Positions 4,059 to 61,479 of a stretch of 64,000 nucleotides of DNA are shown here, one piece after another; the stretch's first letter is position 1; each line of letters begins with the position of its first letter. Below the pieces are notes generated by a model. That model had not been told where the DNA came from and ran no database searches. It saw only the letters and a list, made by a program, of their open reading frames with translations. A program made the position numbers and the translations under genes. The stretch lies in assembly GCA_964106915.2 (NCBI GenBank), contig OZ066915.1, one strand, 5' to 3'. This stretch comes from Podarcis gaigeae (Eukaryota).

Positions 4059-6249
4059 GTGAGAAGCCCGTTTTTCACTATTCGGTTTGGCCTTTTGAAC
4101 GCCTCTTGGACTTCTGTGCAAGCCCTGCTTGTTCAAAGGCTCTTGGTTCCCCCCGAGCCAAATGTTGTTCTGAAGTATGTCCTCTTGCCTTTGTTTATAC
4201 AGAAGCTGGACCTGGAACGGGAGACCATAGACTTGGTCCACACCAACGCCACTGAGATAGCAGACCTGCCTAAAAGAATTCCTCAGGATTCGGCCCGTTA
4301 CCACTTCTTCCTGTATAAGCACTCTCACGAGGGAGATTATCTGGAGTCAGTTGGTAAGACAGCCTTGTCTTTGTCTTTTTTTACAGACCAGAATTTTGCT
4401 TGCCCTTTGCAAACTGTATCTGTGCCTGTCCATTCATTCATCCTTCCTTCCCTCCCTCTAGACAGGCATAGGAATTTATTTTCTGAATGCATCAAAGGGC
4501 TCTCCCCACCAGTGCAGGTTCTTCTGTCCATGAATCTGGGGAACTGTGAGAATGTGCCTTTTAAGTCCTTTCCGATGATACATATTTGCTCATGCAATTT
4601 CTCCAGTGCCAGAAGCCTCATAAGCCATTGGTTTAGTGCAGTGATGGCCCAACTTGGTCCTCCAGCTGTTTTGGGACTACAATTCCCATCATCCTTGACC
4701 ACTGGTCCTGTTAGCTAGGGATGATGAGAGTTGTAGTCACATAACAGCTGGAGGGCCAAGTTTGGCCATCACTGGTTTAGTGCAAAGAATTCCGATATAA
4801 CCAATACTAGAACTTTTGAAAACAATACAGTACATGAAAAGGAAGATGCTCGTCTGCAAAACTTTTTCCTACTCTTTGTGTTCTGCACTTCCTTCATTAT
4901 AGTTATTGCATGCATGGTTTCGCTCCTTATAGTTTTGTGGAATTAATCATGGCTGGACCCAGGAATGACTGATTGCCCTGTTTTCTCTTCCTTGCAGTAT
5001 TTATCTACTCCATGCCTGGTTACAAATGTAGCATCAAGGAACGCATGTTGTACTCCAGCTGCAAGAGCCGACTGCTTGACTCCGTGGAACAAGATTTCTG
5101 CCTAGAGATTGCAAAGAAGGTAAGCCTAGGCTGCCACCACCCCTTGACCCTTAAATTTATATTTGATAAAATCCTCCTCCTTCCATATGGACACTGGGAG
5201 CTGTGGATGGTGTGAAGGGCTGGTGGGACAGTAGATGAAGATTCTTCTGGAGGAATTCCTCAGGACCCAGTATATAACTTGGGGAAGTGTCCCGACGTTG
5301 GTCTTAAAAACCTTAAGACCAATCATTAAAAAAATATTTCAATACTTTAGTAGCAGAAGATCAGCTAGAGAGGCAGTTGGGCTTTTGGATGACAAGGGTG
5401 TCAAATATGTGTTAAAGAAGGAAAAAGAGACTGCAGGGAAGCTGAATGAATCAGCTGCATCTGTCTTCCCGGCAGAAGATGTAGGGCAGATCCTGGCCAT
5501 CTAAGGAAACTGTGCCTTGTCCCTAAGATCAGATTGCAGATGGGAAAATTGCTGATTTTTTAAAAAAAGGATCCAAGGGATTACAAGCCAGTTAGCTTAA
5601 CTTGTGTTTTGGGGAAACTGGTGGAAACCATTATTAAGGATAGAATTACCAAGCATCTGAAAGAAGAGTTCTTTGCAGTCATGGGATGAGAGGACAGATC
5701 CTCTCTTAGATGAGTAACGGCTTAAGGAAAAGGAAGCAGAGAATAGGAATAACTGGATAGTTTTCACGGGGGGGGGGGGGAGGAATGATGGAACTCTTGG
5801 CCAAGAGAAATTTCAAAATTGCATGGCTGACCTACGAAATGATGAAAAGCTCGTTGCTCAGATGAGGAGCTGTGATACTCAGATTCTGGAGATGAAAAGT
5901 AGATCTGGTTGGAAGCAACATTTTAGAGTTGCTGCTGGATGGTAGAAATGATTTTGGGGAAAGAGGTGGACGAGGGAGGTAAGAGTGGCATCACGAGGAA
6001 GACAGTCCTTGTCTCATCTGAGATGTAGGTGTTTTCAGAGGCCAAGGCAGAGGACTGCATCTCCTCTTTCCTCTTTGCCAGATTGAAATTGATGATGGAG
6101 CTGAGCTGACAGCAGAGTTCCTGTATGATGAGGTCCACCCCAAGCAGCATGCCTTCAAGCAGGCCTTTGCCAAACCCAAGGGGCCTGTGGGAAAGAGGGG
6201 ACAGAAGCGACTTATCAAAGGACCAGGCGAGAATGGTGAAGACAGTTAA
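3933..6249 (+). CDS. TWF2: Twinfilin-2, 3' part: join(3933..4058,4203..4353,4998..5119,6082..6249); upstream exons lie before the window
   Basis: Spliced translation [56 protein letters not shown]...[53 protein letters not shown]...[38 protein letters not shown]...GENGEDS* matches the C-terminal ADF-H domain and tail of vertebrate TWF2. All introns are GT-AG with consistent phases. Confidence 0.97.
4203..4353 (+). CDS. TWF2: TWF2 coding exon (151 nt)
   Basis: AG 4201-02, GTAAG at 4354; [13 protein letters not shown]...DYLESV. Confidence 0.95.
4639..4774. mobile_element. hAT-family MITE (palindromic, 136 bp)
   Basis: TIR CAGTGATGGCC/GGCCATCACTG, perfect 8-bp TSD GTTTAGTG (4631-38, 4775-82). 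Confidence 0.9.
4998..5119 (+). CDS. TWF2: TWF2 coding exon (122 nt)
   Basis: Polypyrimidine tract plus CAG ending 4997, GTAAG at 5120; [23 protein letters not shown]...IAKK. Confidence 0.95.
5320..5766 (+). mobile_element. CR1 LINE ORF2 relic with internal deletions, in the last TWF2 intron
   Basis: Degenerate [14 protein letters not shown]...KLNE..ASVF; FKKGS..YKPVSLT...GKLVE.IIKDRI; HG.RGQ.L......L..RKQR.GI. Confidence 0.85.
6082..6249 (+). CDS. TWF2: TWF2 last coding exon
   Basis: CAG acceptor ending 6081; [21 protein letters not shown]...GEDS then TAA 6247-6249. Confidence 0.95.
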
Positions 6250-8890: not shown

Positions 8891-9009
8891 CAGGAGTTGC
8901 CAAGCTGGTGCATTCCACATGTCAAACTCCCAATTTCCATCAGCCCCTGCTAGCATGATGGGAGTTGCATTCAAACAACATTTGAAGGACACCACAGTGG
9001 CTGTCCCTG
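8891..9009. mobile_element. hAT-like MITE in the TWF2 3'UTR
   Basis: 8-bp TSD CTCTAGGC (8883-90, 9010-17); internal aactccca/tgggagtt inverted repeat. Confidence 0.8.
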
Positions 9010-10859: not shown

Positions 10860-10865
10860 AATAAA
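10860..10865 (+). terminator. Probable TWF2 polyadenylation signal (3'UTR about 4.6 kb); alternative AATAAA at 9452-9457
   Basis: AATAAA preceded by UGUA motifs and followed about 20 nt later by a GU/U-rich tract (gttggtttttgtgtgtttc). Confidence 0.55.
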
Positions 10866-13800: not shown

Positions 13801-16047
13801 CCCACTTTCCCAGCTTTTGCCAATGTATTCTTGCAAAATCCAGGAAGTGGAAGAAGAATTCATTCGATGATGTTTGTATATCAGTGCCAGCAAGGAAATG
13901 AACATACATTTTGGCCTTGTGTTGGAAACTAAATACCTGACTTTCCCTGGCGATTGTGACCAAAAGGTGTGGTAAGCCCCTCCCCTTCCCATGCCTGTTA
14001 AAAGTGGAAGCTAGGATTGGACCTCCTCTCTAATCCTTTGTTTTTTTTATCTATAAGCATAGGACAGAAAAGTTTGACTTGTTAAGGCAGGCGGAGGAAC
14101 TACTTCAACGTTGTCTGAATGAATACTGAAAATTGCATGGTGTATAACCAACCAAAAATAAAATAAATTGAAGCTGTAGTGATGGGTTGAACGTGAATGC
14201 TTGCTATCTCAACATTTCCCAGGCCATCTTTCATGTCTTACTATTCTCCCATCATGGCTTAAATGGATGATTAAATATTGTGTAAATCTAAGTTGCAGCT
14301 TTTAATCATCTGGAGGGCCACAAGGTTCCACTATCTGATCTAGATCAATCTTGCGGCTGATGCTTGGGGGAGCATCTTGCTGCCCACCCAGTCTGCCTCT
14401 TTTCCTATATGTAGCAGCAGCCCAGGACCAAAGGATAAGGTGGTAGCAGCAAAGATCCTTCTACTCACTCCTCCTTTTCATGACCCTTTGTTTTGTTCCT
14501 GCTCCCATCCCTGCTGTATAGCACAGAGAAAAATGGCTGGGCCTGGGCAGGGGGAGAATCGATAAAACCAGGAGAGGACCTGCTGAAGGGAGCTGTGTCT
14601 GTGCTTCTCCTGCAACATTAGAGCTATGTGCCTGTTCTCTAGATTTGAGTCAACACCATGCACAGAGATTGCGATGGCAGTGGCAGCAGCTCCTGAAAAC
14701 TGTGCTACAGATGTTGATGAGCTACAAGTCTCATCAGCCCCAGCCAGCATGGCAAATGATCATGGATCATGAGAGCTGTGGTCCTGCAAATGTTTCTGGA
14801 CTACACGATCCATATCCCTAAAGGAAAGATGGGGAACATTTGCTATTGAGGGCTGCATTCTCTTACAGGTAATTGTTCAGGGAAACAGGGCAGCTGTGGG
14901 CAGGGCTGAGGCCAGCAGGGGAGAAGAACCACTTCTTTTCTTCCACCCTTTCTCCCTGCTCAGCTGGCTGCCGGAGAAGTAGATAGCTGTTACCAGGAGT
15001 CTAACCTGGTTCTCTTGCAGAAGGCCTTTGGAATTAGGCTAGGTCTGCCAGTGGCCCACCCCAGTCTAGATCATAGTTTCTCATGTGGTGCTCCACAAAC
15101 TCCATTCAGGTTGTCAAGCAGTTTAGAGTATCTGTATTTGGCTCTGCAATTGATTTATTCTTTGTGGCGACTGAGATTAAGGCTTTTGACCTGAGGTTAC
15201 AGCTGACAAACATGACACCTGAGACTACAGAACTTCGCTCAGAAAAACAGGCACATCCATCGCAGTTGGAAAACAAAGACTACTCTTATGGTCTGTCAAG
15301 AACCTCCATGCACCCTATTTTTACACGGTCCATGAGTTTGTGGTAAGGGGGACGTCTGAGAGCCACTGATCTTGGTGGTTATGGCTTTCAGTAGGTGACA
15401 ATATTGAAATGCTAGGTCAATCTGTGTCACATGAAAAATATTTAATTTAGAAAGTTTTTTAAATCTTGCTCCCGCTTAATAAGAGAGGTAGCTTGACGTA
15501 TACAAACAGACAGACAGACACACATCAGTTAAACAGTTACCAATCACATTTGGAGGACTCCTATCTGGTTCAAGTAGGAAATGTTTCTTCTGTATAAATA
15601 ATCTGCTTAAATACAGTACAGTTCTCTTAAAGGTGACTGTGCCATTATTTAACTGTTATAAATATCAGATCCTGACTGAATTATCTTTTGCTTTTTTTAA
15701 AAAAAACAATTAGAAAACTACTGTTCTTGTCACAGTTTAGGAAAATATGCACCGCTGAATATTAAAGCTGCAGCTATGCTGGTGAAGAGAGTTACAAAAC
15801 TTTAAAAGAAAATCTTCAGTGTATTGGAAGAATAGAATCCTGCATAGGTCATGGAAGTTGTTGGAGGGTAAAATCCATATGTGCTCACTTTTCCAGATGA
15901 ACGCAACAAGGAGAAAGAACATCAGTGGGAGCCACAGATCACTTCACAACACCTTTGTCACCAAGCACCATGCTTGTCTTGGTCTTCCCTTCACCCCTGT
16001 GGGCTTCACACAAAAAATCCACATGTATCACAACTGGTCCAAATGGC

Positions 16048-16440
16048 TCACAAACAACACCCCCACAGTGCGGACAGGAGCAACCCAAGAATTAACCAAT
16101 TACTTGTCCGCAGCCAGAAGCCCTGTCCCCGGACAGAGCAGCGCTCTCCATTCCAGCCCTGGTAACAGTGACACACAAACTCTTCTCTCATTTTGTCCTC
16201 CTGCCAACGTCTCAATTGCCCCCTCACCAGCACTTGGGTTTGGTTGCCCTCTGCTACTGTTTGGATCTGGAAGGAGTCAGGGCTGAGGTGCAAATAGCTG
16301 TCCGAGTCCATCCATCGGCGAATGCAGCGGCCGTGGCTGTTGCAGATCTTCTGGCTGCAAAGTTTGGTCGCCATGGTCACGTTGACAATATAAGGGCCTA
16401 AGGTGCTATTCAGGTAGTCCTGAATCTTTAAGCAGTTGGT
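16048..16440 (-). CDS. Hyaluronidase last coding exon (EGF-like domain plus GPI-type tail)
   Basis: cgcAG acceptor; TNCLKIQDYLNSTLGPYIVNVT...CHCYQGWNGERC...LILGLLLSALWGCCL*. Confidence 0.95.
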   Translation of the reverse strand, partial: TNCLKIQDYLNSTLGPYIVNVTMATKLCSQKICNSHGRCIRRWMDSDSYLHLSPDSFQIQTVAEGNQTQVLVRGQLRRWQEDKMREEFVCHCYQGWNGERCSVRGQGFWLRTSNWLILGLLLSALWGCCL

Positions 16441-18627
16441 CTGCGAGGGAAACAGTTATTACAAGAGTTAATAGAGAGCTACAAATGCCAGAGAAAGTCT
16501 GTGATGCAAAACTAAATAAATTATTAGAAAATACTGGAATTTAATGGTATTGGGACTTGTTTATTCCTATTTGACTAGCACTTAAAATGTCCTAATTGAG
16601 GTTGGAGTCCTGTGGAATTGAATTATTATTATTATTATTATTAATACTCCACCCATCTGGCTGAGTTTCCCCAGCCACTCTAGGTGGCTCCCAATCTAAT
16701 ATTAAAAACAATACAGCATTAAATATTAAAAACTTCCCTAAACAGGGCTGCCTTCAGATGTCTTTTAAAAGTAGGAAAGTTGCTTATTTCCTTGACATCT
16801 GGTGGGAGGGCGTTCCACAGGGCAGGTGCCACTACCGAGAAGGCCCTCTGCCTGGTTCCCTGTAACCTCACTTCTCGCAGTGAGGGAACCGCCAGAAGGC
16901 CCTCAACGCTGGATCTCAGTGTCCTGACTGAACAATGGGGGGTGGAGATGATCCTTCAGGTATACATGACCAAGGCCACAAAATCCTTGCAAAGGGGTTG
17001 ATTCTGCCTTAAAATTATTCCCTTAGCATCACATGGGCGGGTCTGTGACAGGAGAGGTTTTGTAGTTCATTCTGTAACTTAAATATAGCACCTGAACACT
17101 GGCTGCATAACAATGCCTAGCCCAATTTTTTCATGACAGTGGCAAATCTGTATCAGGGGTGCATCATTTCAGATTGTAGGAACAGGGTTTTTTTAAAAAA
17201 ATACCCCTGGCAAGAGCTAGGATGTCAAGGAAAAGACTAGTCTAGAATCCTCCCTGACATCTTTTTTTTTTTTTTTACACACAAGGAATTTGTGTATCTG
17301 CAGATGTGCATATATAGAAGAGCAAGCAGCAGTGTGTGAAGTTAGAACATTTTAAATACCCCATGGTACTCTCTGCTAGTCTTTTAAGTAGCCAGTATAC
17401 AAAGTAGAACCTCTGCTTCCTCCCTTTGCCCATCACCTGATGCTGAACAATAAACAAGAGAGATAAAAGAAAAGAATGAGTAAGAAAAGCAGCCTCAAGG
17501 GCTACTATTAAAATTACCCGGTTGCGAGAATACTCTGCGTCTCCCCAGAGTACAATGCCATGAGCCCCCATGGCTGCAGCCTGCCCAATGGTGTACACCA
17601 AGTCTGTCTAGAACAACAGAAACCAGCACACATTAATTTGCAAGTTTACGGTAAATACCTATGCTGTTTCTGGTGGATGTCGAGCACCAGAATATATTTG
17701 GTATAATATTTCTCATAGAACTGTTCCCCATACATACAAAGATCTGAGTCAGTTGGCTTATAAAAAAAGGAAGCTTCTACATGAGTTTATAAATCATAAT
17801 GTTGAACTAAATAAACACAGTTACGAATCTGGGTTTCTTTTTGTTTGACTTCTCATTTCTGAAGCTTTGGGACGAAGCCTTCTAGATATTGTTGGACTTC
17901 AACTCCAGCCTGCATGGCCAGTGGTCAGTATAATGAGAGTTGTAATCCAATAAGATCTGGAGGGCCCAGGTCCAGGTTAGCCACCCTGCTTCAAGACATT
18001 TACCAGTATTTCCCTTTGTTCAACCATGAGGGCTACAAACTTACAGGCAACTCACACGCTACTTGTATGAAATCAAGCCCTCTAATTCATGTTTTTCAGA
18101 AGTGGTCAGTACAGGCAGCAAGGGCTGGGAAAGAAGAGCCAAGAGTATTGGTAGCAATTCCCAGCTATTCACTAAAGCTTTAGCAAGGGCACCACATTCT
18201 ACTGCTGCCTTCTCTTTGGTACTGCCCCCATGGATAAGCGAGTTGCTGGCAACTTCTGGATCGCATCTCCTTTTGAATTAAAAGCAAAGACCACCAGGAA
18301 TCTGACATTCGCTTGCAGTTTAGATGAAGAAGGTATTGAAATGTTTGCAATAAATATTGTGCTTTAATCCAAACAAAATAGGTCTCTCCCAATAGCCCTC
18401 TCACCCTCTATTTGGTTGCATCACCATGGCCAGGAGTGAAGTTGGTGGCAACTCACAGTCCTGAGATAAACTCAGAAATCAATTAACACCTTATCTCTTT
18501 TCCATTCCTCTTTGCCACAAGGCTCCTTCCTTCACTGGCTACCATTGATCAAGAGCTCTAACTAAGACTCAGACTCAGTTCACAACTTCGCTGAGCAGTA
18601 AATCTATTGGGCCTCAAAGCATGGACA

Positions 18628-18672
<45 letters not shown>

Positions 18673-19725
18673 GTGCAGTTTAGGAGCAAAGGTAGGGAAG
18701 AGGGCAAGTATCTCACCTGAGACAACTCCTTCATCGTGTAGGTGTAGAACGGCCTGGCATATGCAAAGACAGGGAGGGAATGTTGAACAGAAGGCAGCTC
18801 CGCGACTCTCAGGGCTTCCCCCACTTTGGCCCACACAAACTTCTTCCCTTGCGGAGAGGTTCTCAGGGCCTCCTCCATGTAGATGGAAGGGTAGAGGGCT
18901 TTGCTGTTCTCCCAGAGCCAGATCAGCTCGTTGTTGCGCTGCACTTCCAGCGGAGGGCAGTGCCCTGTGAAGTTCTCAAAACTATCCAAATAGTGGTAGT
19001 TGTAGCACTCTGGGAAGAGGTAGTAGCCCCACCAGCCCTGGGGGCGGAGAGAGCGGGCCAGCTGCAGGGTCTTAGACATGAATTCCTGGGCGGCCGTCTC
19101 AAATTCCCACTTAGCCTGCACTTCGGCCTGGGCGTCTGACAAATGGCGATTCTTTTGCCTGACGAGCTGGACAGACATGTTCCGATAGACGTTTTTCTTG
19201 TCCCAGTTCCTGACCCACAGGGGCCTCCAGTTCTCCCAGTCTATCACAGAGAGGCCCGCAAAGGAGCTGGAGGGCATGGCTGCCGTCAGGTCGCTCTCCA
19301 TCTGCTCCAAGTGCCTTGTCAGGCTGGCGTTCTGAGGGCAGCCGCCGTTGACGGCAGTGGGCGGCACCGTTGTGTTCAAGTAGTAGGGATACAAGCCCAG
19401 CTGGTCGTAGTAGAAGATTGTGACGTTGTCGCCCACAAAGACTTCCTGGGCATTTGCCAGGATGCTGTAGGAGTCCAAGCGGAGGGGCACCCCGTAGGCA
19501 GCCGAGCACCGGGCGGTGGGCGCATTCCAGGCCACCAGAAAGGGGCTCTCTTTGACAATGGGAGGCAAGGACGGCTTCAGGTTGGGAGATGCCACAGGCA
19601 GGTCTGGGAACAAGAGCAGGAGCAGCAGGAGGGCATGGCGGCTGAAGGGCTGGCACAGCCTCAAGGGTGCGGATGCCCACACGGGTGGCCCGGCTGAGCA
19701 CGAGGGTGCTGCGTCGCATGCAATG
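16048..19725 (-). CDS. Hyaluronidase (glycoside hydrolase family 56, HYAL1/HYAL2-like, predicted GPI-anchored): core exons 19725..18717, 17607..17518, 16440..16048; start codon probably in an upstream exon
   Basis: Family motifs PFLVAWNAPT, NVTIFYYDQLGLYPY, VNGGCPQNASL, VIDWENWRPLW (catalytic D-x-E), WGYYLFPECYNY, ALYPSIY, the conserved 90-nt exon DLVYTIGQAAAMGAHGIVLWG, LGPYIVNVT...CSQKICNSHGRC, EGF-like FVCHCYQGWNGERC, and a hydrophobic C-terminus. Typical HYAL three-exon layout with phase-0 introns. Confidence 0.95.
16621..16978 (-). mobile_element. L2 LINE 3' fragment in a hyaluronidase intron
   Basis: Minus-strand RAFSVVAPALWNALP motif plus (TAA)n tail. Confidence 0.85.
17518..17607 (-). 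CDS. Hyaluronidase 90-nt exon
   Basis: ttctAG acceptor, GTAAT donor; TDLVYTIGQAAAMGAHGIVLWGDAEYSRNR. Confidence 0.95.
18630..18670. repeat. (CA)n microsatellite
   Basis: About 20 perfect units. Confidence 0.97.
18717..19725 (-). CDS. Hyaluronidase large catalytic exon (1009 nt)
   Basis: Acceptor ttgtctttcctgcAG (AG = 19727-26); frame open from 19724 (IACDAAPSC...); donor CAG|GTGAGA after ELSQ. Confidence 0.92.
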
Positions 19726-21018
19726 CTGCAGGAAAGACAAGAGGCCCGTCAAGAGTTACATGAGCATGATGCTGACTGGCCAGGTATTCTAAAACAAACC
19801 CAACCATATTCCAGTTTGGAACTGTGGTTAACAGCTAACAAATCAGTTTCCCCATGCAGCAATGTTCGGAACTCCCCAGGTGCATTTTGCTACTGCCACA
19901 GGTCCAATTTGTGGGATGGAAGCACCCAAAATGCTAATTCAACAGGTTAATGCTCACAAGGGCTATAGAAATCTGTGCTGTCACACGCCCAGAGGCAGTT
20001 ATTTCAGTTGGTACAGTTATGGCAGTTAATCTTTCATGTGAGAGCAGCTGAACTGTTGTGCTGCTGACTGTCTCAGAGTTAGTCTGTAATAGTATTTATC
20101 TTAGATATGTAAGATGTATTAGCAATGTAAGTTAACACCTACCTACGTTGCATATTTTAGTTTGCAAGTTGCAAGTACATTAAGTAAAAGTTATACGTTG
20201 TTTAAGCTTTAAAAGAGTGTGTCTTGGATAGTTTTGGGGGAAAGCAAAGTGATTAAAGGGTCAAACGCCCCAGGTGTTTAATTCCCCCACAACTGCAGGC
20301 CCAATTGCAGAAATCTACGTGGAGATTTCTGGGCACCATGTTGGCAATTGACATCTCCATCAAGCCAGCTAACTTGTGTGCAGCAAAAGACAAGCATCTT
20401 GTTCCTCTGTGCGAACCATGAACCCTTTGCTGGGCATCTTAGGCCTCCATCATCCCATCAAGGAAAGTCAGTGCAGATATATGTGACTGCGTTGCAGCCT
20501 TTCCACAAGTCACCCAAATGGAACTCAGATCACAGTTTAAAAACTTCTGCCTTAGCCCACAGTTAATACTATTTCCATTTCCCCTGTGTGTGTCTTTCTC
20601 CTTCTTGCATACTGGGACAAATGAACTGTTGTAAGAGCAAGCTACAGTCACGCAAAGTAGTTGAGATCCCAGAAATGTAGAACTGTAGCAACCTCCTGGC
20701 AAACAGACAAGCGCAACCTAAGTTTAAGGTGCCATTTGGCGCAACTGAGTTTCTAACACTGCACAGTGTGACTGCTCCCCAGTCACCGCCTGCCTGCCTC
20801 CTTATTTGCAAACAGTCTAGTGGTTGACACTGGCTGCCAGCAACCTCCTTGCTCTTAGAACCCAGCAGAGGAAGATGGGGCAAAATTAGAATGAGTTTGC
20901 TCTGCCTGTCTTCAGCCCTGGCTCAGTCTACTGTTGGCCACCCTGCCTCCTGCCTCACTAGTGCTATATATGTAAAGCCTTCTTTATCATAAATGTTTTC
21001 ATCCGACAGCCACGTTAC

Positions 21019-40759: not shown

Positions 40760-41650
40760 TGCGATGCCCCCCCCCCGTTGATTTTGCCAGTTGATTCCAG
40801 AAGCAAACTGAGGGGTGGGCTTCATTCGTGTCTCCGTCTCTCTCTCCCGCCCCTCACCCCAGCCCCTTTCAGTCGCCGCGATCTTGAGAGGCGATAAGGG
40901 AGTTGCTGCTCTCGGGCTAAGAGATGCAAATGTCAAAGGGCGCGGCGCTAGCGGACCCACACACCTGGATCTACACCCCAGGAAGGGAAAGACCCGGGGC
41001 GCGGGGAGAAGGGGCTCCTTGGGAAAAGCAGCCCCGGAGAAGGCAGGAAGGAAGTGGAAATGCAGGCGGAGGAAGAGGAAGAGGAAGAGGTCTCCAAAAA
41101 GTTGACCCACCACGAAGCAACGGTCGAAGCCCACCGAGACCCATTTCAACAGGTAGAACAGCAACCCCCTGGATTTGAACTCAGCTCCCAAGAGGACGCT
41201 GGTTTTTGTATTGCCCGAAGTCTTTGCAAACAAAGGAGTCACTGAGAAACTCGAGAGAGGAAGGGAGCGGGGAGGTTTCCGCTCCCAACAGATAGGAAGG
41301 ACCGGCTTAGGCTTCCCAACCCAGCAGACGCCGCGACGCAAACGTACCTTTGCCGCGTCCTCATCTCTCCCCGTCCAGGCATCCAGGACTGGACCGCTGC
41401 CTGAGTCCCGCCGGATCCCCCGGCGCCGCTTACCTGGGGGAGGAGGGCACAGGACCGCCCCTCACCTGCTGGCCCCGCCCACCCAGCACCGGCCCCGCCC
41501 ACCGCCTCACCTGGCCGCGAACCCTGCCCGCTCACGCCCGGGAGTCGTCAGAAGTTGGTGCTTCTGGGAGCAGCTCAGCAATGTCTTCACCTGTGACTCA
41601 TCTCTGAGTAAGCAGGAAAAGGCTCGTGAACTCGAGGGTGGGACATGGGG
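40760..41650 (-). promoter_or_regulatory. CpG island / GC-box promoter, probably firing on the minus strand
   Basis: High CpG density, two GGCCCCGCCC Sp1-type boxes (41471, 41491), several minus-strand 5' splice sites (GT at 41347, 41433, 41465, 41510). Confidence 0.7.
41348..41382 (-). CDS. Second candidate ATG-bearing first exon of the hyaluronidase (MPGRGEMRTRQ+AG, phase 2)
   Basis: ATG CCT GGA CGG GGA GAG ATG AGG ACG CGG CAA AG|GTACGT inside a CpG island; phase 2 fits the 19725 acceptor. Confidence 0.45.
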
Positions 41651-50472: not shown

Positions 50473-50633
50473 TTATGCAGTCGCTGACACAAGTTTGCTC
50501 ATTCCACTGAAGTAGGATCTTTCCCTTTCACTCATTACTTCAAAGTGAAGGGGTCGCCTGCAGAAGTTGCATTCAGCAGAGGAGTGTGGCTTCAGCTCCA
50601 GGCCAACTTCCTTCCAAGTAGCTAACAGATTCT
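50473..50633 (-). CDS. ALAS1: ALAS1 last coding exon
   Basis: [32 protein letters not shown]...VSATA*. Confidence 0.95.
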
Positions 50634-53600
50634 CTGCAAGAGAAGGAAACTCTGGTAATTGCAGAGACAAAGCAAACACTCTTGCTAATCTGTAGCATGA
50701 AGACACAAAACAACTAATACAAGGTTCATCCTTATTAGCTTTCTTTAACACAGTAGCCTTGAATTTTAAAACCCTAATGACCCCGTTATGTTCAAAGGTT
50801 TCATGGCCCTTTGCCTGTTACAGGTTTACTAGGAGAGACAACCTCAATTCTTGTATTACCTGCTAGACAATATTCCCTTTTGGAGGAAGCCTCCAAAACC
50901 CTACGCAAATCTGAAATGGAGTCTCTAAAACGGTTGGATGGAGCCTTGTACGCCTCCTTCCAGCAACTCCTGGTGCCAAACGTATTGCTCAACCTTCCTT
51001 TGGATCACATCAGTGAGGCCAAGAGGGGCAGCCCAAGCCTGCGCCACAAAGAGGTCACTTCAGTTTGATTTCACCCCCAGAGGTGAACTCCATTGTCTCT
51101 TGAGACAGATGAATGCCAACAACTGTTTAGTAAGCTTGTGTGTGTTAGGACAGAAATAGCAGATTTACTGGCACTAACCCAGTACTTGAGGGACGCAGGT
51201 GGCGCTGTGGATTAAACCACAGAGCCTAGGACTTGCCGATCAGAAGGTCGGCGGTTCGAATCCCCGTGATGGGGTGAGCTCCCGTTGCTCGGTCCTTGCT
51301 CCTGCCAACCTAGCAGTTCGAAAGCACATCAAAGTGCAAGTAGATAAATAGGTACCGCTCCAGTAGGAAGGTAAATGGCGTTTCCGTGCGCTGCTCCGGT
51401 TCACCAGAAGTAGCTTAGTCATGCTGGCCACATGACCCGGAAGCTGTACGCCGGCTCCCTTGGCCAATAAAGCGAGATGAGTGCCGCAACCCCAGAGTCG
51501 GCCACGACTGGACCTAATGGTCAGGGGTCCCTTTACCTTTACCCCAGCAATCTAACCTGATCACAAAAAAACTTTACTGGTCTCAAATTCAGTTTTATAT
51601 ATTGCACTGTGTAAGCTTATGTACATTTTAGGAAGTGGTACTTGCAGTCACCCATCCTGCTTCTCATGTTTATGATAGTTCAGCCTTAGGGACAAAGCAC
51701 ATTTTTTTCTGTAGGGGTAACCCTATTTGAGCATTAATTACTTAGGGGATTCCAGTTACATGCGGGGGTACAGCAGGGCCATGCTCCACATAAAAGGCTC
51801 CCCATGCATGATCAGGGTTTAAAGTCACATGGGGGAGTCTGAGTGTAGAGTGGGCTCCTAGCTTCAGCCTTCAACCTTAATGAGAATAAGGGGTGTTGTG
51901 GATACGGCAGCCCTACTCTCTGCCACACGTGATTGGAATTGTGCAAGCAATAAGTGCCCAAATAGTTCTTTAGCACTATAGTCAGAAAAGTGTTAGGAAA
52001 TGATGCTGTGCTTTTATGTCTTTGTTCACTCACCAATAAAATAGTTCATCATTTGTGGTGTATGATGTGGGGTAGGGGCAATACGTAGCAGCTCTTCCCC
52101 ACGTGGCACAGTGGGGTAGTTTATCGCTTGGACGTAGATGCTATGCTGGCTCATCATTTTGTCACAGATCTCAGTATTTTTAGCAGCATCTGAAACCTGA
52201 GGCAGAAAGATTATTTCTAGACACATTTCCAAGACTGTAAAAATACATTATTTGCACCACCAAGGACCAACTAGGTGTTCCCATGACCAGACTCCCAAAG
52301 TTATAGTTACAAAGACCTGTACTTATAGACACTGCTAGTTGCATGAACTATTAACCAGTAAGATACAAGCTAAAACTAGGAGGCAAGTGCTTTGGGGTGG
52401 GGTGGAAGCGGAAAAGGCAGGGAGAACGAAGCACATGTGTGTGGTCCAAGAAGGCCAGTGATATACTCCTGTGCCACTTCTCTTGCCAGGGAGACCTCAG
52501 GGTATCCCCATCCCAGGTTCCTTCAATAGACCATGTGGGCTTCATAACAATCTCTTCCCTAATCAATGTCAGATTGCTGTATTCTGTGGGTCCTGGGCAG
52601 GAAAGCAAAGAAATGCAGGTTGCCATCAATCTCCTACTCTCTCAATCTGTGTTTTATGCATAAATTTAAACTGAAACAGTGGGGGGGGGGGGATTGCTGA
52701 AGTCATAACCATTAAGATGCCTCTTGGGGAACTAGGGAAGATACCATATTCTACAGAGTTCAACAAGATAAAGAATGTAAATGCATACAGATTTAATTAT
52801 GAAATTTCTGTGGGACATAAAAGAACAATGGAGTTTTTATGTACAGGATTAAGTCTTTAAATATTTACCCTGATAGGAATGATGTGACTGGGACAGTGCA
52901 CTACAGGGAAGCCAGTATCCATCAGCATCTGTCTCATGAGTTTAACATTGCGTTGATGTTGGCGGCGAAGGACTTGCCCCTCTGCACTTTTGAGGATTCT
53001 CACAGACTCGAGAGCGCCAGCTAAGAGCATGGGGGGCAGGGACGTTGTAAAAATAAAGCCAGCAGCATAGGAACGGACAGTGTCTATCAGAGAACATGTA
53101 CTGGCCACGTAACCCCCTACACAGCCAAAAGCTTTGCCTGCAGGAAAAACAAGCAAAAGGTTATTTTATCCTTGGCTTACAGTTCTTTTGATACCTAACC
53201 ACTAATTTTGGTAAAAAGCAGATGTTTAACAAGCAATGCAGTATTTTGATCCCTCTTCTACAGAAGAGAGCTGTTTTAAGTCTTCATACAACAGAGTAAG
53301 GTGGTATGTTCAATACAGAACTACCACCCCAGTTTTAAATAAGCTGCTTAAAGGTGTGCACACACAAACACATGTATACAGGGAAAGTACATAAAGAAAA
53401 CGCCTGACCACATCTGAAAAGGCAGACATGAAGCCATCTTTGGGGAATCAGTACATTTTGACATCACATGGCGACGCTTAAAAACAACTGTCAAACAGGT
53501 TTCAGTGGCAGGAGCAGTTTTCTAACTGGCCCACCAAGAGGGCTTCTAGGACCAAAAAAAATAGGAAGGATTAGCACAATATTCAGTCCTCTCTACTAGT

Positions 53601-56600
53601 TTTGCTACTTTGTGTTAACAGCGTCTTACTATCTACAGAGAAAGCATACCTTGTGTAAACCAATACCTCCAAAGGGAGGTACTCCTATATATCACTTGCA
53701 TAATAAGAGCAAGTAGTCTGGGGTGGGTACAACTTTGCAGTTGTTATGTAACACCAACTGCCAGTTCATAGTTCCTTAAAATTTATGGAGGTAAAGTGCT
53801 TCCACTGGTACATTGTTTTTACTGCAGCTTTTGAAATTGCAATAAGCATAGCCTTAACTGGTAAAACTTGTTGCCACGACATACATTTACTACTTCTGTT
53901 CCTACCAAATCTCCTTACACAACTCCCACGTCAGGTTTCAGGATTAAGAATGTTCTACTTTACAGAGTTAAGTTCAAGGTAAAGATAGGAGGACTCTGTA
54001 AAACAACCAACATTTTCACATACATTGATTTAATGCAGGAATGGAGGATCTACCACAAATACAAATTATCCTTGCAAATGGAATTACAAGGGTATGATCA
54101 TTCTGTTTTATGACTCATTCTTAGTCACTCTTACTCAAAATTAGAATGAACAGCACCAGTGTGCACATACCCAGCGTTCCAGAGATGATATCCATTTTAT
54201 TCATGACCCCATCTCTGTCTCCTATGCCTCCACCGTGAGTTCCATACAGCCCAACGGCATGTACTTCATCTACAAAGGTGATTGCCCCATGTTCATGAGC
54301 CACATCACAAAGCTCTTCCAACGGGCAGACTGCACCTAAAACAAGGTAATAGTAATATATCAAGTTCTTGCATTTCAGAACCCGTGTCTTCCCAGTTTTC
54401 AGGACCTGGAGCATGATATAGCAAGCATACCATCCATTGAGTGAACAGTTTCAAATGCAACAATTTTGGGAATAGATGGATCCGATTTTTTCAACAGTTC
54501 TCGGAGATGGCCAACATCGTTATGGCGAAAAATGTGCTTTGGCACTCTGCTGTTTCGAATCCCCTGAATCATAGAAGCGTGGTTTCCTGCATCCGAGTAG
54601 ATTTCACAACCTGAGGAGGGAAAGAGAGAGAGAGAAGGCCAATCAAATACTACATTGCAGCTTGATCATCTGTAACTGGATAGGATTAGGACAACTCACT
54701 AATCCAGCTAGAGAGAGATCGGGTTATCCCAACCTGAATGTAAAGAAACCTAGAGCAATAAGATTCTTGTGGGAACCTGTCAAACAAGATACCTGTATCT
54801 GAGGGAAAGGAGGCAGCAGGTTCAAACCTTGAACCCAGATATTACCCAGCTGGTCCTGCCTTTTGCAAGTCACCTCAATTTTCAAATTCTGTTCTTGGAA
54901 TTTTCCTGGCAACTATTGCTCAAATCCAGAATTGTTAGGAGAACCCCATTCTATGATTCTGGAAGGGAAGCAACATCACTGAACAGGGTAGTCTTTTAAG
55001 CAGGAAATCTAGTGAGTGAGCAGGGCAGGAATGATCCAGTGTTGCCTTGGTACCGCTGTGGCCACACATTATGTAGGAAGTGTCATTAGATACCCAGAAC
55101 ATAGGAAAAATATGTAAAGAAACAAAAAACCAAAGTGGTACCTTCAAATTCAGCTACCATACAGCCGCATCTTATACCCATTTAACTTGCGCAGTTTCAA
55201 CAAGCTGGCTGGAACTGTGCAAGTTAAATCCAAGCCTGGTGGAGAGGTTAAAAGTTATGTTTTTGCTAGGTCTGCTTGGGGTTACCCAGTACGTAAAGAG
55301 CTTTTAAGCTTCCTGTCTTGTCTGCGGGGGGAATGCGCGCTCAGAGCACCAGCTTTGGGATTTTTGCACACGATCTTGTGGGGCCATCCAGGTTCCTGCA
55401 AGATCTCACATGAACATCCCTAGCCTCCCAGAGGCAGTGTGCCAAGCAGGATGTGCCCAGCAAGCTTTTTTTGCACTGGGTCCACTTGGGGCTACCTGGC
55501 ATAAAAAGAACTTCTACATTTTCTGCTTTTACTTGGGAGGCAAAGCCTGCCCAGTGCACAGGCTATGGAAGTATGGGGGATTCTCTCTCCTCCTCACCTG
55601 CTAGCCGCCGGGGCGGCTCCAAGGGTTTGGGTATAAGCAATTTTCATGTATACACAGAATCCTTGGAACAAAACCCTAGACGCTATGCGCTTGCATTGTA
55701 CTTGCATTTTGTCTTCACACATCTAGTTTGGGTTTTTTCAGTTCAAAGCTTTTGATACAATTTCCATGAGGTGACAAAAACATGCACTTAACCTGGCTGG
55801 ATTGATTAAACTGCTAGCCACGTTCAACTCCAAGCTAGTTTAAGTGTTTGTCTTTAATTAATATGGGGCAATCTTGATGCAATTTGGTGTTTTACAGTAT
55901 TTGAAATGAATGTACCACGGAATATATATTTTTAGCAATTCCTTCAAGGTACAGTAGAACAGCATATTCATGTTAGATTTACCTGGCAACATTTTGGCTA
56001 GTGTGAAGAGTGTTGAATCATTTGCTACAAAGCAAGAAGAGAACAACAGAGCAGCATCTTTTCCATGGAGATCAGCCAATTCTTTCTCAAGATCAACATG
56101 GAATTTACTGGTTCCTGATATATTCCTGGTGCCTCCTGCTCCCGCACCATGCTGTTTCAGTGTTTCCCTGTGAGGAAGGTTCCAACAGGGTCATTAAACA
56201 CAACTTGAAGCAATCTCACATTCGCAAATAAGTTGCATTCCCATTCATGTAGGGGATAGTTGGCCTGAGTGATAAAGCCAAGCACAAACTAGGATAATTT
56301 GGGGGGGAATTTCATAGGTTACCAGCTTGAGATTTCTTAAAAAACATTCTTCATTATAAGCAAACTACTTGTGGTAATTAGAGGAGAAGCATTCTGTATT
56401 AAGAAATACAGTGGAACTCCATTTAATCTTTTAAAACCAGTTTGGTGTCATGTGGAAATATGATACAGGTGGGTGGCTCATTACAAAGAAAAGACAGTGA
56501 CAAAAGGTCCCCTAATAACCAAAGAGGACCTATAACTTAATAATTTGCTTGTAACCAACAATGGTGTTGGGTGGGCTTCTAAAAGACACAATGTAATTAG

Positions 56601-59228
56601 CCAACATTTTACTGTCAATTAAAAAACACTTACATAACAGCTCCACAAACTCTAGGATGACGACTCATCCCAAGATAATCATTGCTGCACCAGACAGACA
56701 CCTCTTTCTTGCTGCTATGGGATTCTGAATAGTCATCTGCCATGGGAAAAACCTGGGCTCTTCGGTTCACAGTTTTGAACACACGGTATGTATGATCTTT
56801 TCTTTTCTCATCAATTTTTTTCTCAAAGAACTGATCATACTGGAAAGTAGAAACAGCTAGAAGAGGAAGGCATTAGCACATGTAAGCAGCTAGAACAACC
56901 AACAAAGTTTATACAAGCTTTTGATTTCCATCAAGTTAAATAAGACTGTGCCTCACATTTCGGTAAGTTCTCCTGAAGCAGATGAGACACCCTTTCTGGT
57001 CTCTGTTTCAACATCATATCTTGGAATTTCTTCAACAAGCCATCATTTGGATTTTCCCCATCCATCTTAGTGTTTACCGCAACAGTACTTTCTGGTGTTT
57101 TGGCAAATTCTACATAGCAAGGTGGCATAAGAAAATTAAAGTAGTGATTGGACAGCTCAAATTAAATTTCATGTGTAAACAATGCAGTTGTTTTTAAAAA
57201 ATGTTACTGTAACTGAATGAAGTAGTATATTTAATGATTACAAGTACTTTTTTTCTTCAGAATAAGTCCTGGCAGTGCTGGGGATTCACATAGGGGATAA
57301 CTGTTTCTCAGCCCTCTACTGTTCATTTCATGATAGGTATCTTCCCAGTTTTATGTGTGTTAGTTATTTTCAAACTCAGGACTATCCCACATTTCCCCCC
57401 AAAAATCCAACCAATAAAACACAGCTGCATGAATCTACTCTAGTTAACTAGACAACAAAAGTTCATAGTTATACATGAACAACTGCTTAGCACTACACTG
57501 GTGTCCACTTGCTTTCTTCCCTGTATTGTGGCCTATTCAAAGTCCAAGTCACTGAGAATCAATTAGTGTTTCCCTAAAAGTAGCCATGCTTTCAGAGCAG
57601 AGGCAAGTGAAAGTCTGTTATTTTACAGTGCATTTAAAGCAGCATGTGAATTAACTGTCCCAAAGTGTTTTCCTCTATTTCATAACTGTACTTACAGGAA
57701 ACACCACCATTAGAAAGAGAGATCTTTGGCTCAGACAGGTTTCAGAACTATGATCATTATTATTACACCAACAACTAACTGTAAATAAAGCAGACAGAAA
57801 AACCCAAGCCAATGGATGTGCAACATGTGGATTCTGCAAGAGGTACACAATTTAAAGAGCTTGAGAAACTTGGACTAAACTTTGTTCAGTTTTGTCTCCT
57901 CTCTTTAAAATCTACCTAGCACGATTAGAACCAAATTTTATTAAACCTCCAAAGAGGTGATACCTTTTCTTACTGCTTGCATTTCTTCCACATCCTCCTG
58001 GAGTTCCAGGCTAGCTTTGCGGAAAACACTGCTGTTCCCTTCGTTCATCTGAGCTGCCAAGAATGGGCATTTAGTCACAGTGGCTTGGCTAGCACTCTGG
58101 CTAGCGGCAGGTGGGTGGCTCAATGGAAGTTGGGATCTGCTTATGTTTCGTTGGGCCACATCTGGTGAATTTCTGGCCTCTTGAATAAAAGAATAAAGTG
58201 TTTAGTATGCAACAAGGGTATCTGAGGTACTCATTTTGATAGGGGTGCTAGTTGTATCTGTCTTAAAATATATTTTATGTGTAATACCTTAAATATTATC
58301 CAGATACTGTAAGGATTGAAAACATTTTCATTCAGAAGCGCTGTTTAACTAACCAAACTAAAAAAATACTCAGAGAGCGGAAACACTACACTCTCCCCCC
58401 TGCCCAGCAACATATCAAACTATACTCAGAAAACTAAAGGGGAACACTAAACAAACGGACCAGTATTGTGAAAAGAAGAAATGGATGAATCGTTACATCA
58501 GTCCCATTATTAGTTTTGACATAAAGTATATTTGAACACACGACAGTTTTCTTTCATTAATGAGAAGTCTGCTTTTTTAGAAATATTTTAAAAATCAGGG
58601 TTATGCCTCACAATAACAGTGTATAACATATAGTTTTAACTGACGTCTTCAAGAGAACCAGTAGCACACTCTTATGTACATTTACTTAAAAGGAAATCCA
58701 ACTGAATCCATGGGATTTACTTCTAAGTTACAGTATATAGGATAAAAGCCTTAGACTGCAGTCCTATGCACACTTTGAAGGGTTGTACACCTCATTTAAT
58801 TAAGTGGGATTTTCTTCTAATGAAAAACATAGATTTGTACAGTTAGTATTTCCTAAGTTCTTGCTTCCTGAAGTTTCTCCTGCCAGGCTCTTGCCTTTAG
58901 TTAGCACTTCCTGATGCAGTGATGAAAACATATTTCAACAGCATGTAGAAAGCCTGTGATTATAGATATTTTAAGCAACAAAAGCAAAGTTCAAAAAAGG
59001 CAAAACTGTGGTGCCAGGTCATTTGCCATTTAAGATGCCCCTAAATCAGGAATGAGGAACCTGAGGCTCAGGGGCAAATGCAGCCTCTCAAGCCTATCTG
59101 GCCCCTGAATCTCTTTGCAAACCACACCCCGTGACCAACCACACTAGCCATTCTCCTCACCGGTCCCACTTCATACACTACTGCATGGCTGGAACGTGAA
59201 CTTTGATAATGCCTTTTGCTTGCCTAGA

Positions 59229-59268
<40 letters not shown>

Positions 59269-60683
59269 AAACTAGGGTACTGTTCAAAGGTAACATTTCC
59301 ATTTGTTGCTTTGCCCAGTTCTGTCTCTGCCCCCCCCCCCTACTGCTGGCATGTGGGCCCTGGAAGGTTGCCCTGCAAAAGCTTCATCAGTGTCATCCAC
59401 CGTATGCAATACTTTTTAAACTGTTCTTCACCCTTGTTCTTAGATTGTACAGAGAGCGAGTTACAATATACTCTGGCCTCTGTAACTGGGAAAAGGACGT
59501 TCAAAGTTCAGTCAGCCTACCACTTTCTCAAAAGTGAACTTGGCTAACATCATATTGCCTTGAAATAATAAACCATTTCCAATCATACTGCCAATAAAAA
59601 GTTAATTTTAAAATGTAATGCATCACTTCTATTATAATCACCACGGGCAAGATCCCATATCAAGGAGAGTTGGCACTGTTGTGCAAGCTATTTGCTATTC
59701 AAGCAGAAGTTGTATAACAATACAAAACAGGGTATCACAGATTAATTCTGTTTGACATGTCTATTGCCCTAAGCTGCCCACTCACTGGATTTGGCCATTG
59801 CACTACATTAAGAATGTCCCCCCCACCTTCCCCAATTGTATGGCTGTTGCACTCACAGGCTGCCATTACTAGATCTCACCCTATGTTTCAGAGTACTGTA
59901 AAGGTAAAGGTAAAGGTACCCCTGCCCGTACAGGCCAGTCGTGTCCGACTCTAGGGTTGCGCACCCATCTCACTTAAGAGGCCGGGAGCCAGCGCTGTCT
60001 GAAGACACTTCCGGGTCATGTGGCCAGCGTGACGAAGCTGCTCTGGCGAGCCAGCACCAGCGCAGCACACGGAAACGCCGTTTACCTTCCTGCTATAAAG
60101 TGGTACCTATTTATTTACTTGCAACTTAGGGGTGCTTTCAAACTGCTAGGTGGGCAGGAGCTGGGACCGAAAGACGGGAGCTCACCCCGCCGCGGGGATT
60201 CAAACCGCCGACCATACGATTGGCAAGTCCTAGGCACTGAGGTTTTACCCACAGCGCCACCCGCGTCAGAGTACTGTAGAATAAATTAAATTGCTGAACA
60301 GGTACAAACAAGCAGGCAATTCTAGGAGGTTTAACTGATGAATAAGATCAGGCCAATGGTATTGCAACTCCATTGGGTTCCAGAAGTATGCTCACTGCTG
60401 TATTTCAATTTAGTAAGGACAACATTTCAAGAAAGTTTCAAGTTATGCAGTATTAAATAGCAAAATCGCAAAGTTAAGCCTTACTCTCACTAGTTGAAGT
60501 GGTTTCTTCAGTTTGCTGACAGTGAGCAGATGAAGTACTCAGGGCACGTGAAGCAGGCTTAGTCGCAACTTCCATCATTTTAGGGCAGTTTTGGGCATAG
60601 AAAAGAAGGGATTTGCCAGCCTTTTGCAGGAAAGCCTGGGATACCCTTGACAGGAATGGGCAGCGGCGAACAACAGCTTCCAT
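50473..60683 (-). CDS. ALAS1: 5-aminolevulinate synthase 1 (housekeeping, mitochondrial), 637 aa: join of 60683..60485, 58179..57964, 57109..56957, 56856..56634, 56167..55983, 54610..54431, 54335..54171, 53137..52869, 52196..52034, 50633..50473
   Basis: [14 protein letters not shown]...QNCPKMM and TKCPFL haem-regulatory CP motifs; [43 protein letters not shown] (PLP lysine), [25 protein letters not shown]. Exon lengths sum to 1914 nt with consistent phases. The N-terminus is ALAS1-type, not ALAS2. Confidence 0.98.
51190..51543 (+). mobile_element. Sauria SINE in the last ALAS1 intron
   Basis: Closely similar to the 42754 copy; GGGACGCAGGTGGCGCTGTGG head, CTTTACCTTTACC tail. Confidence 0.92.
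52034..52196 (-). CDS. ALAS1: ALAS1 coding exon 9
   Basis: [11 protein letters not shown]...[23 protein letters not shown]. Confidence 0.95.
52869..53137 (-). CDS. ALAS1: ALAS1 coding exon 8
   Basis: [10 protein letters not shown]...SHIIPIR. Confidence 0.95.
54171..54335 (-). CDS. ALAS1: ALAS1 coding exon 7
   Basis: [14 protein letters not shown]...[12 protein letters not shown]...DIISGTL. Confidence 0.95.
54431..54610 (-). CDS. ALAS1: ALAS1 coding exon 6
   Basis: [21 protein letters not shown]...FETVHSMD. Confidence 0.95.
55983..56167 (-). CDS. ALAS1: ALAS1 coding exon 5
   Basis: [23 protein letters not shown]...TLAKMLP. Confidence 0.95.
56634..56856 (-). CDS. ALAS1: ALAS1 coding exon 4
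   Basis: [18 protein letters not shown]...[19 protein letters not shown]. Confidence 0.95.
56957..57109 (-). CDS. ALAS1: ALAS1 coding exon 3
   Basis: EFAKTPES...[15 protein letters not shown]; GTGAG donor. Confidence 0.93.
57964..58179 (-). CDS. ALAS1: ALAS1 coding exon 2
   Basis: cttttattcaAG acceptor; ...[10 protein letters not shown]...[14 protein letters not shown]; G|GTATC donor. Confidence 0.85.
59231..59267. repeat. (GT)n microsatellite
   Basis: About 18 units. Confidence 0.97.
59901..60266 (-). mobile_element. Sauria SINE (divergent subfamily) with 13-bp TSD
   Basis: (AAAGGT)n tail on the plus strand; TSD TCAGAGTACTGTA at 59888-59900 and 60266-60278. Confidence 0.92.
60485..60683 (-). 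CDS. ALAS1: ALAS1 coding exon 1 (exon starts at 60708)
   Basis: ATG 60683; acceptor AG at 60710-09; donor A|GTAAG. Confidence 0.95.
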
Positions 60684-61479
60684 TTTTCAAGAGTTTTCAA
60701 AAGTCTTGCTGAAAATAACAAAACAATGTAGTTTAACCTCATACAAAGATGCAAGAGAGACAGTCTGTATACAAGACTTCTTCAAGAACTACTGGGGTCA
60801 CTTCACATATGACAAACATATAGATGACCAGCATACATAGGTTACTGACTTTTGGATGTGTTTGCAGCTTTTAGATGCACACAAGATTGTTAACATATTA
60901 CGATCTACACACACAGTTGCAGGTTCAGTCCTACAAAGGACAGCCCTCCAGTTCAAGATGTTTACATGAAGCAACCTTTAAGCAAAAGCAAACAACAGAA
61001 AACAAAAACATAGCGCCACCAAAGATTAAATAGCTGCACATGCATTGAGCTACAGGCCAAAATACCTGAACCACTGGCATAGTAATTCAGCAGTGGATAA
61101 TTTCACATATGACCCCTTGACTGACAAAAGGAAGAAAGAAAAACTGGGAGGATAGGCAGTCCAAAGAATCTTGACTCACCAGTTCCAGAAGGGTAGCCTA
61201 CGGATCTGTTGCAACGTTGTGTGCAAAGAGTCTTGCAGCATGTTAAAACTTACAAAGACTTATTACGGCATAGCACATTGTGGACTACAGCCAGCCTTGA
61301 GTGCTTGCCCAAAATGACAGATAACGCTAGATGCCAGTATCTGGACAGGCAATATTTCATGGGTTCAGTGAAGCGAGCTCTAGCCCACCTAAGAATATGC
61401 CACAATGAACTCGCTAACCTGCAATACCTCGCCCCACCCCGCCAACACTTCTGTTTTCAAGGCGTTTAAAAACCAGGGA

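Follow-up and report, generated by a model that had tools for sequence, protein, structure and literature searches.

The stretch of the Podarcis gaigeae genome analysed here (the window; 64,000 nucleotides, G000:C2:75702001-75766000) carries a glycoside hydrolase family 56 (GH56) hyaluronidase gene flanked by a twinfilin gene and a 5-aminolevulinate (ALA) synthase gene, and the question raised by this locus is where a hyaluronidase standing alone comes from. An initial annotation of the sequence had read it as a distinct paralogue outside both classical HYAL clusters, either lost in mammals or moved or duplicated in reptiles. On balance, the evidence makes it very probable that the gene is an intact, spliced member of a seventh hyaluronidase lineage, as old as the jawed vertebrates and apparently lost in placental mammals, whose product is likely a glycosylphosphatidylinositol (GPI)-anchored surface glycosidase that would cut hyaluronan.

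The GH56 gene placed at 16048-19725 by the annotation was confirmed as intact, on the minus strand, where the open frame spans 18558-19748. A splice-site search combined with tblastn of the four nearest records resolved the coding sequence into four exons (Table 1), separated by introns that are all GT-AG; joined, they make 1527 nt encoding 508 amino acids with zero internal stops, close to the predicted length of about 500 residues, and all of the motifs claimed are seen (DWE at 174, WGYY at 244, ALYPSIY at 288 and VLW at 367). The span 16048-19725 matches exactly the outer edges of coding exons 2 to 4 but leaves out the 35-nt first coding exon, which lies 21.6 kb upstream and was located by tblastn with residues 1-11 of P0002, the Podarcis raffonei 'hyaluronidase-4-like X1'. 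This is the nearest named protein among the matches listed, with 489 of the 508 residues (96%) identical. A start codon within 16048-19725 was ruled out: no in-frame ATG precedes the signal-like stretch there, and the four ATGs that occur within the initial 400 nt of exon 2 lie out of frame. One of them, at window position 19636 (minus strand), has a near-perfect Kozak context just before the hydrophobic leader and downstream of the true start, and could divert leaky scanning. Exon 1 sits in a GC- and CpG-rich stretch (~40800-41600; CpG observed/expected 0.5-0.83), 9 kb downstream of the stop codon of the ALA synthase gene. At the other end, the ATTAAA beyond exon 4 is the sole hit among five polyadenylation signal variants in 15201-16047.

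Transcript data agree that the gene is spliced. Four of the 24 listed sequencing runs were mapped to 13500-21000; their source is a related organism with about 97-98% identity, and the RNA nature of run X4 is a guess, raw RNA runs labelled with the same species being mapped as well. A 2163-nt contig from X4 covers 15492-16440, exon 3 (17518-17607) and 18717-19727, and derives from spliced RNA, since both downstream introns are removed at the predicted joints (17607/18717 and 16440/17518). The X4 contig extends 82 letters beyond exon 2 and an X1 contig 22, as expected if exon 2 is spliced to an upstream exon. The joint between exons 1 and 2 lies beyond the mapped stretch, and the RNA support covers two of the three splice joints, in a relative. 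In raw RNA run X23, two reads with one start span the joint between exons 3 and 4. A high-copy repeat in intron 3 (window 16660-16970) attracts nearly all mapped reads.

Proteins for the phylogenetic analysis were gathered by three homologue searches (the best 120 each of 263, 210 and 671 matches), a representative search (the best 150 of 1616) and cluster look-ups, which gave 429 proteins. The window protein falls in a 45-row clade with support 100 in a FastTree analysis of 234 rows; in IQ-TREE it belongs to a clade of its own of 14 rows (100/99) in a mixture-model tree of 45 rows hand-picked to cover each clade, and to a 12-row clade (99/99) when placental HYAL1/2/3/4 parts, PH-20 and a ray-finned fish orphan clade were added to make 48 rows. 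Branching within the clade broadly follows the species tree, with cartilaginous fish and non-teleost ray-finned fish basal (their mutual order is unresolved), followed by coelacanth, lungfish, caecilians and amniotes. Approximately unbiased (AU) tests were run on the 45-row set, in which the window gene and its anole orthologue were constrained to group with HYAL1, HYAL2, HYAL4 or HYAL6 sequences. Grouping was rejected with sauropsid HYAL2 (p 3e-57), with squamate HYAL6 and a pit-viper enzyme (p 1.5e-75), with the lizard's own HYAL4 (p 6.9e-7) and with sauropsid HYAL1 (p 1.8e-9). HYAL3 and the window clade form separate clades in the 45-row tree (100/98 and 100/99), as do the SPAM1 rows (100/97), and both the gar and the white shark hold a SPAM1-type record and a window-clade member. 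The distinct paralogue outside both clusters that the annotation had proposed is thus borne out, and because the clade runs from chimaera to marsupials and the AU tests reject grouping with HYAL1, HYAL2, HYAL4 or HYAL6, we regard the gene as very probably a separate and ancient jawed-vertebrate lineage.

The distribution of this lineage was assessed by best-hit classing against a panel, which assigned 89 of 428 proteins to the window clade; seven with a margin of ≤12 bits were dropped, leaving 82. By a hand count of source names these represent 57 species: 14 squamates, seven turtles, six palaeognath birds, 11 marsupials, three caecilians, a lungfish, a coelacanth, five non-teleost ray-finned fish and nine cartilaginous fish, the last including chimaera, sharks and skates. 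Two caecilians and one gecko have two members each (P0036/P0041, P0037/P0040 and P0011/P0029), which suggests later duplications in these species. None of 114 picked named rows from other groups belongs to the clade (35 frogs, three salamanders, two crocodilians, two tuatara, 29 neognaths, 32 teleosts and 11 placentals). An orthologue in these groups should have ranked higher, since their HYAL2 and HYAL6 proteins were listed at lower scores; this control of absence is solid in the case of frogs, neognaths and teleosts but weak in the other groups, and the proteins sampled contain no monotreme row. The annotated loss in mammals needs narrowing, as 11 marsupial species keep the gene and no placental member occurs among the matches listed; an excerpt of PMC3581078 accounts for all six human and seven mouse hyaluronidase genes, and the lineage appears to have been lost in placental mammals. 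A teleost clade of proteins named 'glyco_hydro_56 domain-containing' was rejected as the one-to-one orthologue, since the gar has both P0394 of that clade and the window-clade member P0086. This gar and teleost clade (P0394, P0168, P0172, P0201, P0216, P0385 and P0387-P0389) has His or Arg in place of the catalytic Asp, with the Glu also replaced in the nine teleost rows, and is a probable pseudoenzyme related to HYAL2 and the window lineage.

A PF01630 search of the P. gaigeae genome gave 13 matches from seven genes (Table 1). HYAL1, HYAL2 and HYAL3 are all present as separate genes in a group at C2 72.98-73.03 Mb, which accords with the annotated lack of a classical-cluster neighbour in the window and speaks against the window gene being the genome's sole copy of any of the three. 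The window protein is 45-48% identical to the products of the other GH56 genes here except HYAL3 (five of six), and 71% identical to a sea turtle orthologue. In eight other species (a monitor lizard, the pig-nosed turtle, a dunnart, a caecilian, a skate and three sharks) the records of the window-clade gene and of HYAL2 or HYAL1/3-type genes list longest contigs of identical length, which suggests that the two share a chromosome or scaffold there and that this linkage is old. The second cluster of this genome (C21 57.20-57.26 Mb, L017-L023) holds a HYAL6-type gene and HYAL4 only; no SPAM1 was found among the 13 PF01630 matches or among 19 matches to a sloth PH-20, which fall in the same seven genes.

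The encoded protein has a full GH56 active site. P0002 reaches 460 bits with Pfam PF01630 (cut-off 23.2), covering profile positions 1-334 of 335, and window exon 2 alone reaches 379 bits; the vertebrate-type barrel and HyalEGF-like domain are present, with ten of ten conserved cysteines, and nine N-glycosylation sequons are present. Residues D174, E176, Y247, Y294 and W369 align with D129, E131, Y202, Y247 and W321 of HYAL1, catalytic-site residues whose roles are described in the accessible part of PMC4077683, and together with S292 they are kept in the window protein and nearly all clade rows. Of 295 aligned rows that are near full length, 72 belong to the window clade; the catalytic Asp, the catalytic Glu and the Tyr202 site are each kept in 70 of these, and the Tyr247 site in all 72. 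Two skate rows (P0127 and P0264) have Glu-x-Val in place of the catalytic Asp-x-Glu, and the gene may be inactive in some skates. The clade is marked by C141 (61/72 rows against 0/223 others), Q120 (69/72 against 9/223), E297 (70/72 against 3/222) and Q304 (69/72 against 4/220). A hydrophobic leader stretch lies near residues 41-57, and the tail after the last EGF cysteine has 29 residues with a hydrophobic end (peak 11-mer hydropathy 2.45). Such a tail occurs in 52 of the 60 clade rows that reach this cysteine and in 60 of 62 HYAL2 rows, compared with one of 12 for HYAL1 and none of five for HYAL3. P0002, folded by AlphaFold with a 19-row alignment, gave a mean predicted local distance difference test score of 81 and a predicted template modelling (TM) score of 0.78, with helices in the leader (40-50) and in the tail (489-507); the best Foldseek matches were HYAL1 2PE4 (target TM 0.92, E 1e-45) and PH-20 9JUB (target TM 0.90).

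Among the known hyaluronidases, HYAL2 is the likely sister of the window gene. The two lie on the same chromosome, 2.7 Mb apart, and share a three-exon core with a 90-nt middle exon, a hydrophobic tail of about 30 residues, the full catalytic set and an acidic residue at the site of HYAL1 S77 and PH-20 D94. They differ in that identity is 48% and the clades have been separate since cartilaginous fish; the window gene stands outside the HYAL2 clade and the IFRD2-HYAL3-HYAL1-HYAL2-TUSC2 cluster, has Cys141, a Lys at the Arg265 site, a short insert at 131-133 and a longer N-terminal leader, and was not found in placentals among the matches listed. PH-20/SPAM1 and HYAL1 share the (β/α)8 barrel, the HyalEGF-like domain and the catalytic residues, PH-20 also the Asp at D94, but they are 42-44% identical and belong to other clades, and HYAL1 lacks the hydrophobic tail. 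HYAL4, a chondroitin sulfate hydrolase, has the GH56 fold and a hydrophobic tail, yet none of its 16 rows has the Tyr at the Tyr247 site that the window protein carries as Y294. HYAL6/HYALP1 and snake venom hyaluronidase share the family and the catalytic set and form a separate clade; the window gene is a member of neither the SPAM1/PH-20, the HYAL3 nor the HYAL6 group.

From the complete catalytic set and a hydrophobic tail resembling that of HYAL2 we predict a surface hyaluronidase held by a GPI anchor, and an active enzyme of this kind is the probable product. The hydrophobic stretch at ~41-57 would send the protein into the secretory pathway, and a GPI anchor would replace the tail, as happens in HYAL2 and PH-20. 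E176 would act as the proton donor, with D174 supporting substrate-assisted hydrolysis of the β-1,4 bond, and hyaluronan cleavage would take place in endosomes or at the cell surface and might extend to neutral pH. According to a portion of PMC4030862, Tyr247 is kept in all hyaluronidases but HYAL4 and contributes to hyaluronan specificity; Y294 thus points to hyaluronan as the substrate rather than to a HYAL4-type restriction to chondroitin. An excerpt of PMC11315327 states that Asp at HYAL1 position 77 confers activity at pH 7, and D119 of the window protein, an Asp found in 43 of the 72 clade rows, occupies that position, a hint that its activity may extend to neutral pH. As for its origin, we propose that the lineage most likely arose by local duplication of a HYAL2 ancestor before sharks and bony fish split and later parted from the cluster on the same chromosome.

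Several observations weigh against parts of this interpretation and lend themselves to rival explanations. On the historical side, the TWF2/ALAS1 flanking is known from this lizard alone, the losses derive from best-120/150 lists of predicted proteins with only 11 placental rows, and the Shimodaira-Hasegawa-like approximate likelihood ratio support of the clade is only 90 in a quick 82-row IQ-TREE analysis that holds a long teleost branch. The position next to HYAL2 is weak in the 45-row tree (85/77), reaches 95/93 in the 48-row tree only with the long-branched ray-finned fish clade included, and is open in the 82-row tree. The same ancient lineage might instead be a genome-duplication partner (ohnologue) of the HYAL4/SPAM1 pair: a sister relation to HYAL4 plus SPAM1 is not rejected (AU p 0.18), D119 is as in PH-20, and a phmmer search of the PDB ranks PH-20 first (E 1e-116), followed by HYAL1 (1e-109), no HYAL2 chain being matched there. 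Every unconstrained tree that resolves the node nevertheless gives HYAL2, with 96 in FastTree besides the two values above, and we consider HYAL2 the somewhat favoured sister and the ohnologue a clearly less likely origin. That the gene arose within reptiles by duplication or relocation of HYAL1, HYAL2, HYAL3 or HYAL4, as the annotation had allowed and as source names such as hyaluronidase-4-like, -2-like and -1 would have it, has a negligible probability, for orthologues in sharks, lungfish, caecilians and marsupials date the gene to the jawed-vertebrate ancestor, the AU tests reject HYAL1, HYAL2 and HYAL4, the other genes are present in the genome, and the 45- and 48-row trees refute it unless badly misled. 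It is likewise very improbable that squamate venom hyaluronidases descend from this gene; lineage members do occur in snakes and anguimorph lizards (Thamnophis, Varanus and Elgaria), but the pit-viper enzyme P0116 falls in the HYAL6 clade with the C21 57.21 Mb and C2 109.7 Mb genes (100/99), in keeping with its AU result, and snakes carry the window-gene orthologue and a HYAL6-type gene separately.

On the functional side, 58 of 72 clade rows, including all tetrapod ones, carry Lys at the HYAL1 Arg265 site, against two of 222 other rows, 208 of which have Arg, and we take this site to matter for activity. PMC10206443 was discarded as a source on this point, its Arg265 being a TMEM2 residue. 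Tyr247 alone does not settle hyaluronan specificity (PMC4030862, in part); residue 177 (HYAL1 position 132) is Asn, and A132N is not among the changes that give HYAL1 neutral activity in the available part of PMC11315327. Because some 40 residues precede the signal-like stretch, this stretch could be an anchor that is not cleaved, and exon coverage is very low in two raw RNA runs, with a mean depth of <2 per direction. The Lys of the tetrapod members, the extra conserved Cys141 and the disappearance of the catalytic pair from the two skate rows and from nine of nine rows of the related ray-finned fish clade would fit a weak or non-hyaluronan enzyme, with a preference for chondroitin sulfate or with mainly a surface-binding role as proposed for HYAL2; retention of D174, E176, Y247, S292, Y294 and W369 in the window gene and nearly all clade rows renders this rather improbable. 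Beyond the predicted GPI-anchored hyaluronidase lies a speculative and doubtful scenario, in which jawed vertebrates began with seven lineages, the seventh a GPI-anchored, neutral-pH enzyme lost independently at least five times (in teleosts, frogs and salamanders, crocodilians, neognaths and placentals), and does the surface neutral hyaluronidase work of PH-20 in lizards without SPAM1. Such a role is conceivable because SPAM1 was not found in this genome, and it would have been a later take-over, since the gar and the white shark hold both genes.

For squamate venom, the link drawn in the annotation does not hold for the one snake sequence in the trees, P0116 from Ovophis, which is presumably of venom-gland origin; the set contains no Heloderma row. 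The HYAL6-type gene at C2 109.73 Mb (L006) is fast-evolving, lies on another chromosome than the C21 HYAL6-type gene and pairs with the pit-viper hyaluronidase (97/72), possibly by a long-branch effect, and is a better venom lead than the window gene. Parts of the literature report one venom and five non-venom hyaluronidase genes in the habu (PMC6062510, whose tree may contain the window-gene orthologue), a stingray venom hyaluronidase also within HYAL6 (PMC6315956) and hyaluronidase sequences of Heloderma and Gerrhonotus (mentioned in PMC13709620). The suggested relevance to lizard tail regeneration found no link to the window gene in the literature searched; hyal2 and hyal4 are reported in zebrafish fin regrowth in the accessible text of PMC5313160. 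Only HYAL1, HYAL2 and HYAL4 are named for two lacertid genomes in the portion of PMC6381762 available, and the corresponding portion of PMC7058155 has nothing on the window locus.

Table 1. Coding exons and neighbours of the window gene (window positions) and GH56 genes of the P. gaigeae genome (chromosome positions).
Feature	Position	Strand	Remarks
Coding exon 1	41348..41382	-	35 nt; start codon, 11 codons + 2 nt; tblastn, GT donor, open frame
Coding exon 2	18717..19725	-	1009 nt; signal-like hydrophobic stretch and most of GH56 barrel; D174, E176, Y117, Y247, S292, Y294
Coding exon 3	17518..17607	-	90 nt; carries W369
Coding exon 4	16048..16440	-	393 nt including stop; barrel end, HyalEGF-like domain, 29-residue tail with hydrophobic end (predicted GPI signal)
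3' untranslated region	15441..16047	-	candidate ATTAAA polyadenylation signal ~15446-15441
Twinfilin gene, last exons	4973..6246	+	convergent with hyaluronidase gene; last coding base 6246
ALA synthase gene	~50476..60686	-	upstream, same strand; limits are the open frames holding first and last coding exons
Window gene	C2 75.72 Mb		2.7 Mb from HYAL1/2/3 cluster, same chromosome
Three GH56 genes	C2 72.98-73.03 Mb		between IFRD (72.96 Mb) and TUSC2 (73.08 Mb); group with HYAL3, HYAL1, HYAL2 in trees
HYAL3	C2 72.98 Mb		classical cluster
HYAL2	C2 73.03 Mb		adjoins TUSC2
HYAL6-type gene	C21 57.21 Mb
HYAL4	C21 57.23 Mb
Second HYAL6-type copy	C2 109.7 Mb		L006, 109.73 Mb

The twinfilin and ALA synthase flanks of the annotated position are seen in the window; we take the former to be TWF2 rather than TWF1 from a C-terminal motif and the latter to be ALAS1 rather than ALAS2 from terminal motifs. 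The human TLR9 gene presumably lies between ALAS1 and TWF2. A TLR9 remnant between the twinfilin and hyaluronidase genes (6247-15440) was sought and rejected: none of the 26 matches to the Toll/interleukin-1 receptor domain in the genome lies in the window, and two TLR proteins of the same genome gave no tblastn hit at E≤1. Stretches L040-L041, scanned by motif for the next gene, yielded no match. Among the introns of the hyaluronidase gene, intron 2 has a CA microsatellite at ~18628-18670, and the 21.6-kb first intron has a 142-aa frame at 33479-33907 (plus strand) that by eye resembles a fragment of a long interspersed nuclear element reverse transcriptase.

The gene is not new as a sequence: RefSeq and UniProt already hold it under the mixed names hyaluronidase-4-like, -2-like and -1, and within a well-known enzyme family it forms an unnamed subfamily rather than a novel type of system. 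A description of it as a lineage was not found in the literature searched, most subscription journals and the orthology databases lying outside that search. In the standard account, as given in part of PMC3581078, three genes doubled to six, which are present from zebrafish onwards, and only the mouse adds a seventh; a seventh lineage from chimaera to marsupials revises this six-gene history and implies that placentals have likely lost a gene of hyaluronan metabolism. In reptiles, marsupials and sharks, a gene annotated as 'hyaluronidase-4-like', '-2-like' or '-1' is often this one, and studies of selection, venom and regeneration that count it as HYAL4, HYAL2 or HYAL1 may compare genes that are not orthologous. 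The lineage further provides a natural, as yet uncharacterised GH56 enzyme that lends itself readily to assays.

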